Of a stretch of DNA of 64,000 nucleotides, positions 291 to 8,726 are shown piece by piece. The notes below the pieces were generated by a model. That model saw only the letters and a program-made list of their open reading frames with translations. It had not been told where the DNA came from and ran no database searches. Within the stretch, counting starts at the first letter, position 1; the number at the start of each line of letters is the position of its first letter. A program made the position numbers and the translations under genes. This stretch comes from Escherichia virus TH44, in the sequence record MT446415.1. The stretch is one strand, 5' to 3'.

Positions 291-956
291 ATGATTGACA
301 AGAACTACATTGAGGAAATTCGTGTCCTCGAGAAAAAAGAAGCCAAAGAAAAATTAGCTGAATATGCAGCATCACTTGGTGTTGATGTTAAGAAAACAAA
401 AACCTTTGATAATATGTTGGCTGACCTGGAAGCAGGACTTAAAGCATTTGCTGACATGCCTATGCCTGATGATAATGAAGGCCTGAGCATCACTGACCTT
501 ATCGATGCCGATGATGAATTGTCAGGTGCTAAATTTGATGGCGATGAGTCAGCTAAAGAAGAAGCTAAGCTCTTATTTGATGCTCCAACCGAAGCAAAGG
601 TTGAAGTTGTTGAAATCGAAGAACCAGTTGTTTTGGTCGAAGAAGATGTTCCTTTTGTCGAAGAAAAGTTCGAAGCAGCTGTTGCTAAGGTTATCGAATC
701 TGAAAAACCTGTATTTGCTCTGCCAAAAAACTTTAGTCCAAATCTTATGCTTATTGGCAAGAACCCTGGATTCTGTACTGTTCCATGGTGGATTTATCAG
801 TGGATTTCTGAGACTCCGGATTGGAAAGAACGTCCGACTAGCTTCCAACATCCTACTGCACACCAAACACTATTCAGCTTGATTTATTACATCAATCGTA
901 ATGGGTCTGTTCTAATACGAGAAACTCGTAACTCATCTTTTGTCACTTTAAAATAA
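291..956 (+). CDS. inh: Inh-like protein (prohead protease inhibitor position), acidic N-terminal half
   Basis: 221 aa ORF with GAGG RBS; immediately upstream of hoc as in T4; identity assigned by position and composition only. Confidence 0.55.
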   Translation: MIDKNYIEEIRVLEKKEAKEKLAEYAASLGVDVKKTKTFDNMLADLEAGLKAFADMPMPDDNEGLSITDLIDADDELSGAKFDGDESAKEEAKLLFDAPTEAKVEVVEIEEPVVLVEEDVPFVEEKFEAAVAKVIESEKPVFALPKNFSPNLMLIGKNPGFCTVPWWIYQWISETPDWKERPTSFQHPTAHQTLFSLIYYINRNGSVLIRETRNSSFVTLK

Positions 957-965
957 GGGTTTATT

Positions 966-2378
966 ATGGCTTATACCGTAGCTATTGCTCCTTTGGCGGC
1001 TACGGCCGTTATTGGAGCAACAACCAATTTCACTGCAACCGGCTCTGGCGCTGCAGCTGAAGGTGTTGAATCATTTGTATGGACCGTTAATGGCGTTCCT
1101 CAATCTTCTGTGACTGCAGCAATGGCTTATGTCGCTGTTGGTCCAGCAGGCAGTAAGACTATTAAAGTTGTTGCAACCACCACTCCAGCAGAAGGTGAAC
1201 CGGAAACTGCTGAGGCTGAGACAACTTTAACTATCCAGAATAAAACAATGCCTGCTATTACATTGACTTTAGACCCTGCCTCTGTTACTAAAGAAGTGGG
1301 ACAATCTCAAGTTGTTACTGCTAACGTGACGGGTGCTCCTTCTGGTGCAACAATCACTTACGTTTGGAAACGTAACACTAGCGTAATCGCAGGTCAAACC
1401 GGTAAAACTATTACCGTAACCGAAGCGGCGGCAGCAAATTATACATTGAACTGTGAAGTTACTGTTTCTGCACCCGATTATAATAATGGTACTGCAACTA
1501 AAGGAGCTGCGGTATCTTTTGTTAAGAAAACTATGACAGGTGTTTCCGTTACTTTAACGCCCGCCTCAATTAGTACAGAGAAAGACTCACCTGCACAGTT
1601 TAAAGCGGATGTAGTCGGCGCTCCGGTCGGCGTAAAGGCAACTTATTCTTGGAAGAAAAATGGTTCTATTATTCCAGGCGAAAGCAGTAATATTCTTGCT
1701 GTTGATACGTCTACAATAGGTTCTTACTCTATTGAAGTTTCGGTACTCCTAACAGGTGCGGATTATAATGATTTAACCGTTACCAAAACAGGAAGTGTAG
1801 CAATTACTAAAAAGACTATGACAGGTGTTTCCGTTACTTTAACGCCGGCTTCTATTACCGTCTCTGAAGGACTCCCAGCTTCTTTTAAAGCTACCGTAGC
1901 CGGCGCGCCTAGTGGTGCTACTTTTGCATATTCTTGGAAGAAAGACGGTTTAGCTGTTGCTGGCACCACGGATACCCTAGCAATCGATACAAGCGCTGAA
2001 GGTTCACAGGTTATTGAAGTTTCTGTTGTGGTTTCGGCGACTAATTACAACCCAGTGACTGTCAAAAAAACTGGTAATGTAACAGTCACCGCTAAAGTCG
2101 CTCCTGAACCAGAGGGCGAACTACCTTACGTTCATCCGCTACCAGTTCGTAATTCAGCTTATATCTGGTGTGGTTGGTGGGTTATGGATGAAATCCAGAA
2201 AATGACTCTTGAAGGCAAAGACTGGAAAACCGATGACCCTGATAGTGATTTCTATCTCCATCGTTATACTCTTCAAAAAATGATTGCCGATTATCCAGAG
2301 GTCGATGTACAAGAATCCCGTAATGGATATATTATCCATCGTTCGGCTCTTGACGCAGGTATAATTTATTTTTACTGA
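966..2378 (+). CDS. hoc: Hoc head outer capsid decoration protein with extra Ig-like domain
   Basis: 470 aa; C-terminus PEPEGELPYVHPLPVRNSAYIWCGWWVMDEIQKMT...YPEVDVQESRNGYIIH matches recalled T4 Hoc capsid-binding domain; repeated Ig-like modules. Confidence 0.9.
   Translation: MAYTVAIAPLAATAVIGATTNFTATGSGAAAEGVESFVWTVNGVPQSSVTAAMAYVAVGPAGSKTIKVVATTTPAEGEPETAEAETTLTIQNKTMPAITLTLDPASVTKEVGQSQVVTANVTGAPSGATITYVWKRNTSVIAGQTGKTITVTEAAAANYTLNCEVTVSAPDYNNGTATKGAAVSFVKKTMTGVSVTLTPASISTEKDSPAQFKADVVGAPVGVKATYSWKKNGSIIPGESSNILAVDTSTIGSYSIEVSVLLTGADYNDLTVTKTGSVAITKKTMTGVSVTLTPASITVSEGLPASFKATVAGAPSGATFAYSWKKDGLAVAGTTDTLAIDTSAEGSQVIEVSVVVSATNYNPVTVKKTGNVTVTAKVAPEPEGELPYVHPLPVRNSAYIWCGWWVMDEIQKMTLEGKDWKTDDPDSDFYLHRYTLQKMIADYPEVDVQESRNGYIIHRSALDAGIIYFY
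1531..1847 (+). repeat. Internal direct repeat in hoc (Ig-domain duplication, about 285 bp period)
   Basis: 32-bp identical segment actatgacaggtgtttccgttactttaacgcc at 1531-1562 and 1816-1847; protein KKTMTGVSVTLTPASI occurs twice. Confidence 0.8.
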
Positions 2379-2397
2379 TACCTAATTCAAAATAACC

Positions 2398-2411
2398 GGG
2401 CCGCAAGGCCC
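2398..2411 (+). other. GNRA-type hairpin GGGCC-GCAA-GGCCC between hoc and collagen-like gene
   Basis: Perfect 5-bp stem with GCAA loop; not followed by a T-run, so likely an RNA stability/processing hairpin rather than terminator. Confidence 0.4.
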
Positions 2412-2427
2412 TTAATCCGGAGGTTGT

Positions 2428-4458
2428 ATGAGTGTAGAAGTAATTTTGGTAACTAAGTACACTATACCTGAACTTATCCAAGCCGTTAATGAAAAACAAA
2501 CGGTTGGATATTTTCCTGCTTGTGGTGTTCTTTATTTTAATAATAGATTTACCCAATTAATGACCTTAGACACAAATGCTACAGAAGTTCCATCAGCACC
2601 TTATACCATAATAGCCGAACAAAACGGTGTTTTATGGGCGGAAGCCGCTTCAGCTTTTGTGGATGCAAATCCGACAGCAGAATGCTTATCACCTGTAGAA
2701 TATATAGATTCGCTATACATGCAAGCTTATGGGGACGCAAGGGCCGCATCCGGTGGCGGTTCGACGGGGCCTAAAGGTGATACCGGTCCAATGGGTCCAA
2801 TGGGTCCTCAAGGTATTCAAGGGCCAATAGGTCCAGAAGGTCCCCAAGGTTTAAAAGGAGAAAAAGGTGATACTGGTCCTCAAGGTCCTCAAGGTCCACA
2901 GGGAGTAAAGGGAGACACAGGAGCAACCGGTTTAACTGGGGCTGAAGGGCCACAAGGACCTATAGGTTTAACGGGCCCTAGTGGAGCCCAGGGTGTTAAA
3001 GGCGATACAGGTCCTCAAGGACCCCAGGGTTTGAAGGGTGAAAAAGGTGATACCGGACCGCAAGGCCCACAAGGAGAACCAGGCACCGGCAATGGCGGTC
3101 TGAAATGGTATACAGAAGATGCTGGTAAAACTTATCCTATTATAGATGTGGACCCAAATTTATCACAAATAGGAATGGGTAATCCAGATGGTGGATACGT
3201 CCAATTAAAATTTATGACCGGAGGCAATAACGCTGGACATATAATGGCTGATGATGGGACCATGACGTTATGGAAAACCCAGCAAAGCACACTCAATCTT
3301 TCGGATAACTCGGCAGCACTGCATAACCATGCCAACGTGGAACTTGCCAATGCTGACATGACGCTTAACATGGATGGGCGTGACTTGACTGTTAGTGATG
3401 TGGATAGTATTCGTCTCCAGCTCAATGCGGACAGAAGCGCTCTGGTGGCGCCGGCGGACGTTGCAAACGTGACAGTATCCACTGAAGGCACTGCACAGGT
3501 CATGGCTAATACTTACATCCAACTGAATGCAGTAAACAACAGGTCTATAATTCAGCTAGACGAATCCGCTATCACCACAAGGTCAGGTCGCTCAAACACT
3601 GAACTCACAGATGCTACATACCGTGCCAGTGCGCCGGACTTAGACGGCCGAATTTCGTTGACTCTGGGTCCGCATGCAAAGTTCCTGGCTACACCTACCA
3701 ATACTGCAATCAATTTTAGTAAAAGTACTGTAACAACCAGAATGCTCATGGATAGTACCGGGATAAACATTGAAACATTAACCGAGGCACCTGTGTTTAT
3801 ACGGAATGTCGATAAGGTGGTTTATACGGCTGATAAAGGTGTGGCTACCATTGGACGGGGTGATTATACACAGGTCGTTGACCAAACTGGGGTAGTAATC
3901 ACTACGGGTGCAGGTAATGTAAGCACTCAAAATGCCACTGGATTTATTAAAGACACTGCCGGCGAGTATCAGTACCGCATCGACAACAAATTGGTATTCT
4001 TCTCTAGTGGGGACATTACAAGAATTAACACAGATGCTTGTGGTGTTGAACTTGATAATGGTTCAGGCATTGCTTATAATAGTGGCACAGGCGAACATAC
4101 TTTTCTTGGCGGTAACGTAGCCCCAGGTGCGGCCAATATAAGTTTAGGTGGAGCTGTTGCTCCGTGGGCTTCAATTTATCTGGATAGTTCTACCCCACGT
4201 GTAATTCAGACCAACACGGCCCACGCGGAAGTCCCAGCTGCTACAATAGCTAAGATGGCTACACTTGTCCCACAAGCTCTGAACACAGCATCCGGTGGCT
4301 TCACAATGGGATATGTTTACGAGGATGTGATTGCAGCTTTAGGCGCCGTCGATGCTGAACTCTACGGGCTTGCATGGATGGAAGGCGGGAAGAAGGTCAT
4401 TAACCCTGTTGCAATACTTGCTATGGAGGCGTTATACGTTCGTAGTAAATTAGTCTAA
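2428..4458 (+). CDS. Collagen-like repeat protein (fibre-like), about 36 G-X-Y triplets plus large C-terminal domain
   Basis: 676 aa ORF with GGAGG RBS; residues about 112-225 are uninterrupted GPQGPQG/GDTGP Gly-X-Y repeats; inserted between hoc and rnlB-side small genes. Confidence 0.8.
   Translation: MSVEVILVTKYTIPELIQAVNEKQTVGYFPACGVLYFNNRFTQLMTLDTNATEVPSAPYTIIAEQNGVLWAEAASAFVDANPTAECLSPVEYIDSLYMQAYGDARAASGGGSTGPKGDTGPMGPMGPQGIQGPIGPEGPQGLKGEKGDTGPQGPQGPQGVKGDTGATGLTGAEGPQGPIGLTGPSGAQGVKGDTGPQGPQGLKGEKGDTGPQGPQGEPGTGNGGLKWYTEDAGKTYPIIDVDPNLSQIGMGNPDGGYVQLKFMTGGNNAGHIMADDGTMTLWKTQQSTLNLSDNSAALHNHANVELANADMTLNMDGRDLTVSDVDSIRLQLNADRSALVAPADVANVTVSTEGTAQVMANTYIQLNAVNNRSIIQLDESAITTRSGRSNTELTDATYRASAPDLDGRISLTLGPHAKFLATPTNTAINFSKSTVTTRMLMDSTGINIETLTEAPVFIRNVDKVVYTADKGVATIGRGDYTQVVDQTGVVITTGAGNVSTQNATGFIKDTAGEYQYRIDNKLVFFSSGDITRINTDACGVELDNGSGIAYNSGTGEHTFLGGNVAPGAANISLGGAVAPWASIYLDSSTPRVIQTNTAHAEVPAATIAKMATLVPQALNTASGGFTMGYVYEDVIAALGAVDAELYGLAWMEGGKKVINPVAILAMEALYVRSKLV
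2761..3095 (+). repeat. Collagen-type triplet (G-X-Y) coding repeat
   Basis: ggtcctcaaggtcc-type 9-bp periodic units encoding GPQ/GDT/GEK triplets. Confidence 0.8.
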
Positions 4459-4465
4459 AAAAAAA

Positions 4466-4493
4466 TGGGAGAGCGAAAGCTCTCCCATTTTTA
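4466..4493 (+). terminator. Rho-independent terminator after collagen-like gene
   Basis: TGGGAGAGC-GAAA-GCTCTCCCA stem-loop followed by TTTTT. Confidence 0.8.
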
Positions 4494-4494
4494 T

Positions 4495-4524
4495 GTTTAC
4501 AAGTTAAAAATTCCATGTTAAGAT
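4495..4524 (+). promoter_or_regulatory. Candidate sigma70-type early promoter (-35 GTTTAC, -10 TAAGAT)
   Basis: GTTTAC at 4495-4500, 18-nt spacer, TAAGAT at 4519-4524, upstream of ORF at 4542. Confidence 0.4.
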
Positions 4525-4541: not shown

Positions 4542-4745
4542 ATGAGAATCATTATGGATAAGGTTAAAGTACATTTTTTACACGAATCTGGTATGACATT
4601 TATTGAAATCGCCAAGGTACTAGGCGGGACTGCTAAAGAGATGGCAAAGGCCTGGGTTGATGTAGAACAAGCCAAAGCTAAATTTAAAGCGAAAGAAAAG
4701 ATTGTTTATCGTAAACGTTTGAATAACAAAAAGGTGAAGAAATGA
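4542..4745 (+). CDS. Hypothetical small protein (T4 24.3 position)
   Basis: 67 aa ORF downstream of candidate promoter; positional analogue between hoc and rnlB. Confidence 0.55.
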   Translation: MRIIMDKVKVHFLHESGMTFIEIAKVLGGTAKEMAKAWVDVEQAKAKFKAKEKIVYRKRLNNKKVKK

Positions 4746-5005
4746 CATTCGCAGAAGAACTACGCCAAATAGCCAAAGAGTCACAAGATAAAGTTGCAAA
4801 TGACTTTATTGCTATATTTCGCAAAGTGGCTCTTAACGCCGCCGAGAATGGCAAAGATGCTGTTAATATGGCAGTTTCTGAAAAAGAGTATGAAGAAGGA
4901 AACCGTGCAAAGATATCTGAATTTATGCGAGCAGAAAAATTTACATCATTTACCTGGAATTATGATTGGCAAGAAAACAAGCCAATGCTGTATGTAAAAT
5001 TCTGA
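4742..5005 (+). CDS. Hypothetical small protein (T4 24.2 position)
   Basis: 87 aa ORF overlapping previous stop (translational coupling). Confidence 0.55.
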   Translation: MTFAEELRQIAKESQDKVANDFIAIFRKVALNAAENGKDAVNMAVSEKEYEEGNRAKISEFMRAEKFTSFTWNYDWQENKPMLYVKF

Positions 5006-5135: not shown

Positions 5136-6143
5136 ATGTTTAAGAAATACAACAGCCTTGAAAATCACTATAACAACAAGTTCATTGAAAAGATTCGCCT
5201 GCAAGGCTTCACCAGCGGTGAATGGGTAGCTCGTGAGAAGATTCATGGTACCAACTTTTCATTAATCATTGAACAAGACAATGTGACATGTGCGAAACGC
5301 ACTGGACCTATCTTGCCTGCAGAAGATTTCTATGGTTATGAAATTGTATTAAAGAATTATGCAGATTCCATTAAAACTGTGCAGAAACTTTTGCAGGATA
5401 TTAATTACCAGGCATATCAGATTTATGGTGAGTTTGCCGGGGCAGGTATCCAGAAGAATGTGGATTACGGTGATAAAGATTTTTATGTATTTGATATCCG
5501 CGTTACTAAAGAAGATGGTTTTGAATCCGTCCTGACTGACACCTTGATGGAAGCATTCTGTATTATCCATAAGTTTAAGGTTGCACCGCGACTGGCTACG
5601 GGTAGTTTTGAAGAATTAATTAAGCTCCCTAATGACCTGGATTCCGTTGTCCCTGATTACAATTTCACAGTGGATAACGCAGGATTGACTACAGCAAATA
5701 CCACTGATTTTGCTGCAAAGGCGGAAGGTAAAGTATTCACTGCCGAAGGATTTGTATTAAAACCTGATGTTCCTGCATGGTTACCTAACGGTGAGCGTGT
5801 AGCGATTAAATGTAAGAACTCTAAATTCAGCGAAAAGAAAAAGTCTGATAAACCAATTAAAGCTGCAGTGGTTCTGAGCCAAAATGATATGGATTTACTG
5901 TGGAATTTCACTGATTATGTGACTGTTAACCGTATCAATAATGTTATCAGTAAAATTGGGGAAGTAACACCGAAGGATTTTGGGAAGGTAATGGGGCTAA
6001 CAGTTCAAGATATCCTGGAAGAAGCCGCTCGTGAAGGCCTTGAATTGTCCCTGACGGAAAATCCTGTTGAAGTTAAAAAGCAACTTATTGCAAATGTAAA
6101 AGAAACATTAAGACATGTTTGGATTACATTAATTAGTGAATAA
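5136..6143 (+). CDS. rnlB: RNA ligase 2 (Rnl2)
   Basis: 335 aa; [12 protein letters not shown]...[13 protein letters not shown] (adenylation lysine motif KxHG) ... [18 protein letters not shown] closely resembles recalled T4 Rnl2. Confidence 0.93.
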
Positions 6144-6147
6144 AAAA

Positions 6148-6172
6148 GGGCCGCAAGGCCCTTATTCTTTTT
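6148..6172. terminator. Bidirectional rho-independent terminator between rnlB and gp24 paralog
   Basis: GGGCC-GCAA-GGCCC hairpin flanked by A-run upstream and T-run downstream, between convergent stops. Confidence 0.75.
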
Positions 6173-7445
6173 CCAGTGGTGGAAGTTTAACACCAAGATA
6201 AGAACTCAATTGGCTTTGGTTAGCCATCTTATCCATATCAGCACCGTCAATAATGCGAGCTTCTTTATCGTCTTTAGCAACTGTATAAGGGTTCGCAGTC
6301 AATGCATAACGAGCTAACAGTGCAACCGTAGGCTGTAAGCTTTCAGGGTCAACAATAACCTTGAATTCCCCGACCGAGGTATCACCCTCATCATCAACTT
6401 CGCTAAGACCTTCCGTATAAGGCGCATAATACAAAGATGCGACCGTCTGTCCTTCACCCATATCAGCATTTACACCGACAATAACATAATCACATGGACT
6501 GTTCATATCTGCATAAAGCGGCAAACCGTTCTTCAGAACGCCATAGGCTAATTCATCCTGACCTTCCTTTTTCTCAACCCAGCCAGAAGCTGCTAAAATA
6601 GCTGCACAACGGGAAGAAGCGACTGCATATGTACCAGCAAACGAAGTCTGACGTTGAACTGCAGAGTTCATTTCACACATATAATAATACAGGGTTCGCG
6701 CACGGTCCTGAGCATTATCATATTTCGGGTCAGTAAGATTCAATACACCTTTTTCAGAAACACCTTGCACCTTGAAGCGGGAACTAACAGTAATAAGGGA
6801 TTGTAATACGTCCTTATTAATTTCCTCTGCCATTTGAATGCCGAGAATATTATCAATGAAATCTGTTGCATCGAAACCGTTTGCTTCCAGGTCTTGGGCA
6901 AGCTCAACAGTTAAAGAAGTTTTCAGCTTTCTGGATTTAACTTCGGTCTGCCATTTATCGATACGGAAACCCGCTTCGGCAATTTCAGGATGACCTTTTT
7001 CAAATTTATCAGTGAAAGCTGCATCTGACATCATTCTTATATGACCAGCAGCAATGGCTTCAGAAATAACTTCACCCAAATCAGTTTCGAGAGTCCCGGC
7101 GAATGGTGATGCTTCCAAAACTTTGAACACAACACTTTCAAACTGGAACATATCGCCGACTGCATAAGCTTCGTCTTTGTTTGTAAATTCTGGAATATTC
7201 TTACGCTCGAACATACCAATCTGTCCTGCAAATGTTGCTCCACCGAGATAAGTCATTTTATCATCTGGGTTCAGGACGCGAACACCATACAGCGCAGCAA
7301 CAGGCTGGGTAGTTTTCTGTTCAGCAACGAGTGCTTTAAAAATTCGTTTATTCGTAGCCTGAGTATAAGAAAGCAAATTAGGACGGGCGACCTGGTTGGC
7401 CGCCGTTAATGTTGATTCGTGAATTAGTGCGTTAATCTTTTGCAT
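6162..7445 (-). CDS. Capsid vertex protein gp24 paralog (second copy, more divergent)
   Basis: 427 aa; shares MxKINxL, QPVAALYGV, KSRKLKT, TVELAQDLEANGF, NKDVLQSLITVS, ANPYTVAKDDKEARIID with upstream copy; ATG directly abuts stop of upstream copy. Confidence 0.85.
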   Translation of the reverse strand: MQKINALIHESTLTAANQVARPNLLSYTQATNKRIFKALVAEQKTTQPVAALYGVRVLNPDDKMTYLGGATFAGQIGMFERKNIPEFTNKDEAYAVGDMFQFESVVFKVLEASPFAGTLETDLGEVISEAIAAGHIRMMSDAAFTDKFEKGHPEIAEAGFRIDKWQTEVKSRKLKTSLTVELAQDLEANGFDATDFIDNILGIQMAEEINKDVLQSLITVSSRFKVQGVSEKGVLNLTDPKYDNAQDRARTLYYYMCEMNSAVQRQTSFAGTYAVASSRCAAILAASGWVEKKEGQDELAYGVLKNGLPLYADMNSPCDYVIVGVNADMGEGQTVASLYYAPYTEGLSEVDDEGDTSVGEFKVIVDPESLQPTVALLARYALTANPYTVAKDDKEARIIDGADMDKMANQSQLSSYLGVKLPPLEKE

Positions 7446-8726
7446 TTACGCCTCATAAATGATTGGCGGAAGTTTAACACCGAGCAGATAAGACATATTG
7501 CTCTGACCGGCCATTAAATCCATATTGGTTGCATCGATAATACGAGCTTCTTTATCGTCTTTAGCAACGGTGTACGGGTTAGCTGAAAGCGCATAACGAA
7601 CCATCAAAGAGATAGCTGGCTGCAAACTATCGGGGTCCACAATGACCTTAAATGCGCCTACATGCTCTTCATCGTCTAAGTCCAGGCCTTCGGTATAAGG
7701 AGCATAGAAGATTGAGCCTACGACTTCGTTTCCACCGTAATTTTCTTTAACGCCAACGGTTACATAATCCAATGGACTGTTAACATCACAGAATACAGGG
7801 AGGCCATTAATCAAATAGCCGTACGCTGTTTCAGGAAGCCATTGTTCATCTTCTGGTTTATGTTTCAGCCACCCAGAGCCAGCCAACATAGCAGCAACAC
7901 GGCTAGAGGCAACAACAAAGGTACCGGAATAAGATGTAGTTTTCTGAATCTCGGAGTTCATTTCGCAAACCATTTCATATAATTTACGAGCGCTTTCTGG
8001 TGCAGAATTATATGACAAGTCAATAATGCCATTGTCAGAAACACCAGTTACTTTATAACGCTTGGAAACGGTAATAAGAGACTGAAGAACATCTTTGTTA
8101 ATTTCATCTGCCATAATAGTGGCAAGCAAGTCTTCCAGGAAAGCAGGAGCATTAAACCCATTTGCTTCCATATCCTGAGCAAGCTCAACAGTTAATGCAG
8201 TTTTCAATTTACGTGTTTTAACCGGAGCATTCCATTTGTTAACCTGGAATACAGCATTACTAATCTCAACATCACCGGCTTCAAATTTCTCGGTGTGCGC
8301 CGCATCAGGAACCAAACGAATGGTTAATGCAATAAGACCTTCTTGCAGAACATCGGATAGTACAGTTTCGGTAGTCGATGCAAATGGATTATCAACCAGA
8401 GCTTTATAAACGATATTCTGGAATTTAATGTATTCACCTTTAGCTACGGCTTGAGTTGGGGTTGTAAATTCCGGGATAGTTTCACGGTCTTTAGAACCAA
8501 CTTCACCGCCATAAACGGCACCGGTTTGGAAACTGAATTCATTATCAGGAGTAAGATATTTAACACCGTACAGAGCCGCAACTGGCTGGTTCGTACGTTG
8601 TTCAGCGATAATATCGCGGTAAATCAATTTGGTTGTAGCGCGGGTCAAAGCAACAAGATTCGGGCGGCCCAAGGAGTTGCTGGTAGTGGTAGTTGACTCG
8701 CGCAGTAATTTGTTAATCTTTGCCAT
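7446..8726 (-). CDS. 24: Capsid vertex protein gp24
   Basis: 426 aa; MAKINKLLRESTTT...PNLVALTRATTKLIY closely resembles recalled T4 gp24; HK97-fold relative of gp23. Confidence 0.9.
   Translation of the reverse strand: MAKINKLLRESTTTTSNSLGRPNLVALTRATTKLIYRDIIAEQRTNQPVAALYGVKYLTPDNEFSFQTGAVYGGEVGSKDRETIPEFTTPTQAVAKGEYIKFQNIVYKALVDNPFASTTETVLSDVLQEGLIALTIRLVPDAAHTEKFEAGDVEISNAVFQVNKWNAPVKTRKLKTALTVELAQDMEANGFNAPAFLEDLLATIMADEINKDVLQSLITVSKRYKVTGVSDNGIIDLSYNSAPESARKLYEMVCEMNSEIQKTTSYSGTFVVASSRVAAMLAGSGWLKHKPEDEQWLPETAYGYLINGLPVFCDVNSPLDYVTVGVKENYGGNEVVGSIFYAPYTEGLDLDDEEHVGAFKVIVDPDSLQPAISLMVRYALSANPYTVAKDDKEARIIDATNMDLMAGQSNMSYLLGVKLPPIIYEA

Follow-up and report, generated by a model that had tools for sequence, protein, structure and literature searches.

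The centre of the hexons in the capsid of phage T4 is normally occupied by Hoc, and a glycan-binding role in adsorption has been proposed both for this protein and for the head fibres of phage phi29. Two further described systems come close to the subject of this report. In phage SPP1, gp12 forms a non-essential, capsid-displayed collagen-like trimer at the quasi-sixfold hexon centre (PMC6813328), and in phi24B the DUF1737 domain of gp84 has been seen by cryo-electron microscopy as a hexameric ring over the pore of the face-centre capsid hexons (bioRxiv 10.64898/2026.04.10.717836). Here, we analyse a stretch of 64,000 nucleotides from Escherichia virus TH44 (MT446415.1), referred to throughout as the window, in which a Gaprivervirus-like T4-like genome holds, between hoc and the genes 24.3, 24.2, and rnlB, an intact open reading frame (ORF) on the plus strand that starts with ATG and encodes a protein of 676 amino acids (aa). 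We are highly confident that this gene encodes a trimeric collagen-stalk fibre ending in a chaperone fold; the fibre is probably a non-essential adhesin carried by the virion. The best single reading of its attachment, advanced more tentatively, is that it is anchored on the head, a placement that draws on distant homology, on the neighbouring genes, and on a single preprint. Both its presence in the virion and its site of attachment are predicted from sequence. Each of the parts is of a known kind: phage fibres with collagen stalks, ends with the S74 fold, and decoration by DUF1737 have all been described. Our search of the literature turned up no account of this protein, nor any of DUF1737 in a T4-like phage. 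What is new relative to the searchable literature is the combination, its occurrence in a T4-like phage, and a design of anchor plus collagen that is apparently shared across podophages, siphophages, and myophages.

Computation resolves the protein into four modules: a DUF1737-like N-terminal domain, a collagen stalk, a mosaic beta-rich shaft, and a chaperone-fold C-terminal module (Table 1). The original prediction of a collagen-repeat protein of this size between hoc and rnlB is borne out in its ORF (2428-4458) and in its neighbours, with the Pfam family Collagen (PF01391) being matched at an expect value (E) of 9.6e-17 and 60.9 bits against a cut-off of 27.2; the Gly-X-Y run, which it put at about 36 triplets, is indeed single and uninterrupted but counts 37. 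Since collagen rises by 0.286 nm per residue, these 111 residues would make a stalk ~32 nm long if fully helical. The remainder, which had been taken for one C-terminal domain of roughly 450 aa, has about that size (455 aa) but is not a single domain, being composed of the shaft and the terminal module. The shaft is 77-80% identical to podophage fibres over aa 222-351 and 57-71% identical to them over aa 482-575, with the 130 aa between these parts (aa 352-481; window 3481-3870) having no homologue in any search and being modelled at low confidence; this segment could be a specificity-determining insert. AlphaFold2 (AF2) predicts only beta strands in the shaft, at a predicted local distance difference test (pLDDT) score mostly of 32-68 by 10-residue block, which is too poor for claims about the fold, and the shaft has no Pfam or NCBIfam domain. 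It is very improbable that the product is not a passive fibre but a virion-borne enzyme (a depolymerase or an esterase): DUF1737 does carry an esterase in phi24B, a gene neighbouring the related podophage fibre gene encodes a beta-helix tailspike, and aa 352-481 are without assignment, but no catalytic domain was found anywhere in the 676 aa by Pfam or NCBIfam, permissive thresholds included, and the short repeat-like segments that make up the shaft also occur in non-enzymatic fibres.

The C-terminal module also supports the fibre assignment. Its aa 602-676 are modelled at block-mean pLDDT values of 74-93 (83-93 except for the last few residues), and by fold comparison alone they adopt the three-dimensional fold of an intramolecular-chaperone domain, the structures compared being those of an endosialidase (3gw6), the neck appendage of phage GA-1 (3gud), the L-shaped tail fibre of T5 (4uw8), and MyRF (7dc3); the next hit in that comparison has a score of 3.8. 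Identity with Peptidase_S74 by sequence was considered and rejected, with no match to Pfam PF13884, no sequence or profile match in the PDB, and an hhalign value of 2.3% against an S74 alignment. True S74 relatives carry TSD[GAE][DTR][HYL]K (Ser-Asp-x-x-x-Lys) before the first helix, whereas the counterpart here, in a register inferred from position relative to that helix, is QTNTAHA, and neither the Ser nor the Lys is conserved in the family alignment. Because the module lies internally in the related proteins P0003, P0023, and P0029, with a distal head after it, it is probably not cleaved off, and we infer that it is a non-cleaving trimerisation module retained on the fibre. It would then exemplify an intramolecular-chaperone fold that is kept permanently on the fibre instead of being removed.

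The N-terminal anchor is likely, if not securely, a two-unit domain. Compared with a strict DUF1737 set, its first half gives an hhalign value of 93.5% (E 2.4e-7), and with a mixed set 93.6%, with reversed or column-shuffled controls giving 0-0.3%. The strict set consists of the N-terminus of phi24B gp84 and two 100-aa proteins from podophage contigs, one of which was scanned and passes the Pfam DUF1737 threshold, the other being a near-identical copy on a second contig. The second half of the anchor resembles the first (hhalign 64%, E 6.5e-5) and gives 2-4% against DUF1737 itself. AF2 models aa 5-47 as beta-alpha-beta-beta at a low pLDDT of ~56-73 by 10-residue block, a topology that agrees with DUF1737. 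The fold matches in BFVD (none at E <= 0.001) are mostly small viral proteins (probability 0.87-1.00), a pair of which bear the name DUF1737 (0.87-0.98), and include proteins of Rogunavirus-type phages that combine the N-domain with collagen. The relatives that share the N-domain themselves reach only E 0.035-0.21 against Pfam DUF1737. With phi24B gp84 (NanS-p), the anchor shares profile-profile homology in its first half, and the low-confidence model would give it the same make-up of one helix and three strands, which in DUF1737 form an antiparallel sheet. The differences are that gp84, with its single DUF1737 unit, binds as a hexamer, bears an esterase, and undergoes proteolytic processing, whereas the window protein probably has two units, set on a trimeric collagen fibre, and its binding to the capsid is a prediction. 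No further copies of the anchor were found in the 64-kb window.

The relatives of the gene place it in a family that the original prediction had missed, namely the fibres of Xuquatrovirus-type podophages, of which the window protein is by sequence a member, one that has gained a collagen stalk behind its anchor. No full-length homologue exists among 50,697 phage records, and the exact protein is on record only in one 171,075-bp NCBI contig and one read-set assembly in Logan. The part after the collagen, used as query, has 19 homologues besides itself, of which 12 come from contigs of ~21-63 kb and the others from short fragments; in their gene order, a terminase precedes the fibre, after which come another fibre or a tailspike bearing Peptidase_S74 and then SU10-type portal, capsid, and adaptor, which is the layout of Xuquatrovirus PTXU04. 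Nearly all of these homologues start with a ~105-aa domain whose identity to the window protein, over aa 1-103 of the latter, is 42-49%. In a profile search of 1.84 billion proteins, this N-domain had only 22 representatives, with the window protein at E 7.5e-49, and it is always N-terminal, followed by exchangeable shafts and tips that end in jelly-roll-like heads, true S74 ends, or an end module of the window type. Identity to the family is correspondingly mosaic along the window protein, with 40-60% in the anchor, the shaft values given above, and 71-86% over aa 547-676. The gp03-type fibres (PTXU04 gp03, the metagenomic P0002-P0020, and Bas95_0004 of HelliStehle) thus share the N-domain, shaft segments, and the C-terminal module, the last being 86% identical in P0002 over aa 612-676. 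They differ in belonging to podophages of ~56-62 kb, in lying between terminase and portal genes, in ending in many cases in a jelly-roll-like head, and in mostly lacking a collagen stalk, short ones being present in P0014 and P0015 only, behind a different N-terminus. On the P0002 contig (L010), a hydrophobic 146-aa ORF (2476-2916) overlaps the stop codon of P0002, the closest homologue, and has no counterpart in the window; it was considered as a separately encoded tip and rejected, being hydrophobic and membrane-protein-like.

The history of the gene bears on whether its product is part of the particle at all. The GC content at third codon positions (GC3) is 0.36 in the fibre gene, 0.29-0.43 in its T4-like neighbours, and 0.53-0.64 in the podophage homologues, so that long residence and maintenance are indicated, and a recent horizontal transfer was rejected on this measure. 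Within the gene, GC3 is 0.22-0.28 in the anchor and collagen and steps up to 0.42-0.54 after ~aa 250, a region that includes aa 352-481, a pattern that suggests long residence of the gene and a later exchange of its distal part. It is improbable that the product works away from the virion, for example as a soluble protein that is set free by lysis and masks receptors or binds to debris, or that the gene is a functionless hitch-hiker without a partner for its anchor. Such a role would fit the rarity of the gene, with scans with the N-domain having retrieved only PTXU04 itself from IMG/VR (alignment as query) and no relative from the JGI metagenomes, and would fit the N-domain being the most diverged part (40-60% against 71-86% distally), which could reflect relaxed constraint. 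It sits poorly with 676 intact codons, 37 perfect triplets, a good ribosome-binding site, a terminator of its own, and a GC3 adapted to the phage genome most strongly in the anchor and collagen; the residues invariant in eight aligned N-domains are also kept in the window copy, as they are by definition. Searches with a single N-domain sequence returned nothing, and those with an alignment returned two fragments only, which is a limitation of the word index.

The case for the head rests in part on gene neighbourhood, with anchor-bearing proteins being encoded among head genes in three lineages. In the window lineage, the gene lies near hoc, inh, and gp24; in Xuquatrovirus-like phages, it lies between the terminase and portal genes, apart from a tail module that has fibre-like genes of its own; and in Rogunavirus, a 514-aa protein of anchor plus collagen is encoded directly upstream of the major capsid gene (UDF157lw, L019 5179-6723), with genes for a prohead protease or structural protein on its other flank. 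This Rogunavirus protein (UDF157lw_00019, MM01_00019) resembles that of the window in its setting and in a two-unit N-domain of ~105 aa placed directly before the collagen, the whole N-domain giving an hhalign value of 64% (E 6.7e-5, 81 columns) against the window family; it differs in a longer, interrupted collagen, a CBM5/12-like insert, an unrelated C-terminal domain, and its siphophage host genome. Both PHROG 22681, which matches aa 3-150 of the window protein, and the phiJLA23 protein of the Rogunavirus type are labelled 'DNA polymerase', which looks like a mislabel. The corresponding protein of HelliStehle bears the annotation 'head fiber protein'. When gp03 and gp04 of PTXU04 were knocked down, the outcome was scored 'Semi-Fit', with smaller plaques as the only effect; for the tail-module genes gp16 and gp17, which are required, it was 'Fit' (PMC11879866 supplement). 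In Xuquatrovirus-like phages, HelliStehle included, a 100-aa tandem DUF1737 protein is encoded between the two fibre genes (L010 2932-3234, L011 6177-6479, L016 4801-5103), the L010 copy being the one that passes the Pfam threshold, and the N-terminus of PTXU04 gp04, the second fibre, is 37% identical to this protein; both podophage fibres may therefore use DUF1737-like anchors.

The same relatives can be read in favour of an auxiliary tail or neck fibre, whose N-domain would dock on a component of the tail, collar, or baseplate and add a second receptor specificity. The annotation of homologues is tail fibre or tail protein, and other proteins that share the N-domain terminate in receptor-binding heads of a typical kind or in S74 ends like those of tailspikes. 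PHROG matches fall in tail-fibre families (although driven by the collagen), and the podophage neighbour gene encodes a beta-helix tailspike of 842 aa that has a related N-terminus and ends in S74. We nevertheless consider this unlikely, as no docking partner common to T4-like and SU10-like tails is known, the podophage tail modules hold separate, essential fibre-like genes, the neighbourhood is one of head genes in all three lineages, and the sole structural datum for the domain family is binding to a capsid.

If the fibre is indeed anchored on the head, the following course can be proposed. The C-terminal module would nucleate trimerisation and remain as a distal knob, the collagen would zip into a ~32 nm stalk, and the N-terminal domains would dock the homotrimer on the particle, with three chains of two units each supplying six units that could match a capsid hexamer, by analogy with phi24B gp84 and SPP1 gp12. 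Adsorption would then be raised through reversible binding of the shaft and knob to glycans of the host or the environment. SPP1 gp12 differs in having a mass of only 6.6 kDa, no DUF1737-like anchor, shaft, or chaperone-fold end, and no sequence relationship that we could find to the window protein. The two-unit DUF1737-like domain might even be a portable capsid plug, the six units of a trimer forming a pseudo-hexameric ring on the pore of HK97-fold hexamers and allowing display on the heads of unrelated phages (Xuquatrovirus-type podophages, Rogunavirus siphophages, and this T4-like myophage), here in competition with Hoc or as a complement to it; we regard this extension as speculative and doubtful, and it would, if true, make the present phage a T4-like phage with long collagen head fibres.

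A number of observations weigh against a head-anchored fibre. The window phage encodes Hoc, the usual occupant of the hexon centre. Pfam DUF1737 (PF08410, gathering score 24 bits) does not match the N-domain of the window protein even at E 10, so that the link to this family rests on profile-profile comparison; the second unit of the anchor is weakly supported; and the AF2 model of the N-domain is poor overall, with a mean pLDDT of 50, too low for claims about the fold. Capsid binding by DUF1737 comes from one preprint and concerns an HK97-fold capsid very unlike T4 gp23. Given that the homologues carry tail-fibre annotations and that N-termini of this kind are found on both podophage fibres, the N-domain could equally dock on a tail adaptor. 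Mass fingerprinting of PTXU04 identified only gp7, gp10, gp11, and gp12, and the late promoter consensus TATAAATA was not found upstream of the gene on the plus strand. Taken with the evidence for it, the earlier suggestion of an additional head or adhesion fibre therefore fares unevenly: its fibre-like nature is upheld by the collagen, the chaperone fold, the modular fibre homologues, and the lack of an enzyme domain, whereas the site on the head is indicated indirectly, by DUF1737 homology and head-gene neighbourhoods. Should the fibre prove to be on the head, T4-like phages would possess a second, Hoc-unrelated way to dress their capsids with adhesins, and the DUF1737-type anchor would serve for docking across phage families, as a module open to reuse in phage display or in the engineering of host or mucus adherence.

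The slot itself is, as comparison of sequences shows, a hot spot and a cassette site at which surface-display genes are swapped among T4-like phages, and such swapping at hoc-rnlB bears on the host range, pharmacokinetics, and immunogenicity of therapeutic phages. When related phages are compared at this position, as the original prediction had proposed, the slot is empty in VR20, where 24.3 is annotated straight after hoc; blastn homology to VR20 is lost at window position 2368 and returns at 4494, at the conserved 24.3 promoter. Apart from the fibre gene, the first 9 kb of the window are ~94% identical in DNA to Gaprivervirus phages such as MN01, VR20, and PSD2001. MN01 holds a 944-aa second Hoc-like protein (L001 2917-5751) with Ig-like repeats and the capsid-binding C-terminus of Hoc, and it shares with the window the hairpin and ribosome-binding site that precede the gene, with homology extending up to window position 2423, which suggests exchange of cassettes at ORF boundaries. 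In TH15, the slot (L002 2664-4859, minus strand) contains a collagen-like protein of 439 aa that is unrelated to the present one and, after it, a Hoc-like protein of 288 aa. Such a pair is also present at the hoc locus of Dhakavirus (CLB_P2, ESCO10), of Aeromonas phages, and of the Erwinia phage Cronus, with the collagen-like member measuring 337-501 aa (TH15; L012, L013, L014, L020) and having tblastn homologues also in dhaeg and Salmonella CGG4-1, a result that speaks for presence only and not for position at hoc. The small second protein is annotated as Hoc-like or head decoration in GomatiRiver_11 and CLB_P2, has a Hoc-type C-terminus in TH15, is labelled 'putative structural protein' in Erwinia Cronus, and is unnamed in ESCO10; it may be the capsid anchor of the collagen-like fibre, and we found no literature on such pairs. 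T4 Hoc and these extra Hoc-like or collagen-like cassettes have in common with the window protein the genomic slot and a presumed role as non-essential surface adhesins. The collagen proteins of TH15 and Dhakavirus are, however, of a different family and are paired with a small Hoc-like protein, and the window protein shows neither Ig domains nor the Hoc capsid-binding C-terminus by Pfam or PHROG, unlike the neighbouring hoc product, which does match.

With respect to expression, no promoter-like site was found in the 49-nt gap between the hoc stop and the fibre ATG, and the sole near-consensus late promoter on the plus strand is AATAAATA at position 251, so that the fibre gene is probably expressed late, by read-through of the inh/hoc transcript. 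The fold of 2379-2427, which includes the small hairpin, is unremarkable (z -1.34). The strong terminator that the original prediction assigned to the gene is confirmed, the hairpin at 4461-4492 with its U-run having a folding free energy of -23 kcal/mol and a z of -8.5 against shuffles. Table 1 gives the coordinates of these elements and of the neighbouring genes.

Table 1. Features of the fibre gene and its surroundings, in window coordinates
Feature	Position	Strand	Description
Fibre gene	2428..4458	+	676 codons plus stop
N-terminal anchor, aa 1-105	2428..2742	+	DUF1737-like unit aa 1-47; probable degenerate second unit aa 57-103
Collagen triple-helix stalk	2758..3090	+	37 Gly-X-Y triplets, aa 111-221
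Shaft, aa 222-575	3091..4152	+	Rich in Ala, Thr, Gly, Asn, Val; mosaic; ~350 aa
C-terminal module, aa 576-676	4153..4455	+	Intramolecular-chaperone (Peptidase_S74/ICA) fold
Inserted cassette, hoc end to 24.3 promoter	2369..4493	+	No counterpart in VR20 (blastn)
Small GC hairpin, 3' of hoc stop	2398..2411	+	GGGCC GCAA GGCCC, no U-run; common to MN01, whose downstream gene differs
Ribosome-binding site	2419..2423	+	GGAGG, 4 nt 5' of ATG; read from sequence
Strong intrinsic terminator	4461..4496	.	A-run and U-run flanks; potentially bidirectional, listed on both strands by the scan
Sigma-70-type promoter for 24.3/24.2/rnlB	4496..4524	+	TTTACA-17-TAAGAT with TG; conserved in VR20; right edge of cassette
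inh	291-956		Pfam/PHROG scans
hoc	966-2378		PHROG Hoc-like, E 1.7e-127
DUF2774 protein, T4 24.3 equivalent	4542-4745		
24.2	4742-5005		
rnlB	5136-6143		

Two further observations concern the neighbouring head genes. Hoc varies in length within the genus too: that of the window is 470 aa long, whereas VR20 and TH15 have Hoc proteins of 377 and 375 aa, respectively, and the ~95 additional residues are consistent with roughly one added Ig-like domain (domains uncounted). Beyond rnlB, on the minus strand, lies a tandem pair of paralogues of the gp24-like capsid vertex protein (6162-7445 and 7446-8726; 427 and 426 aa), which is likewise annotated in VR20 and MN01.

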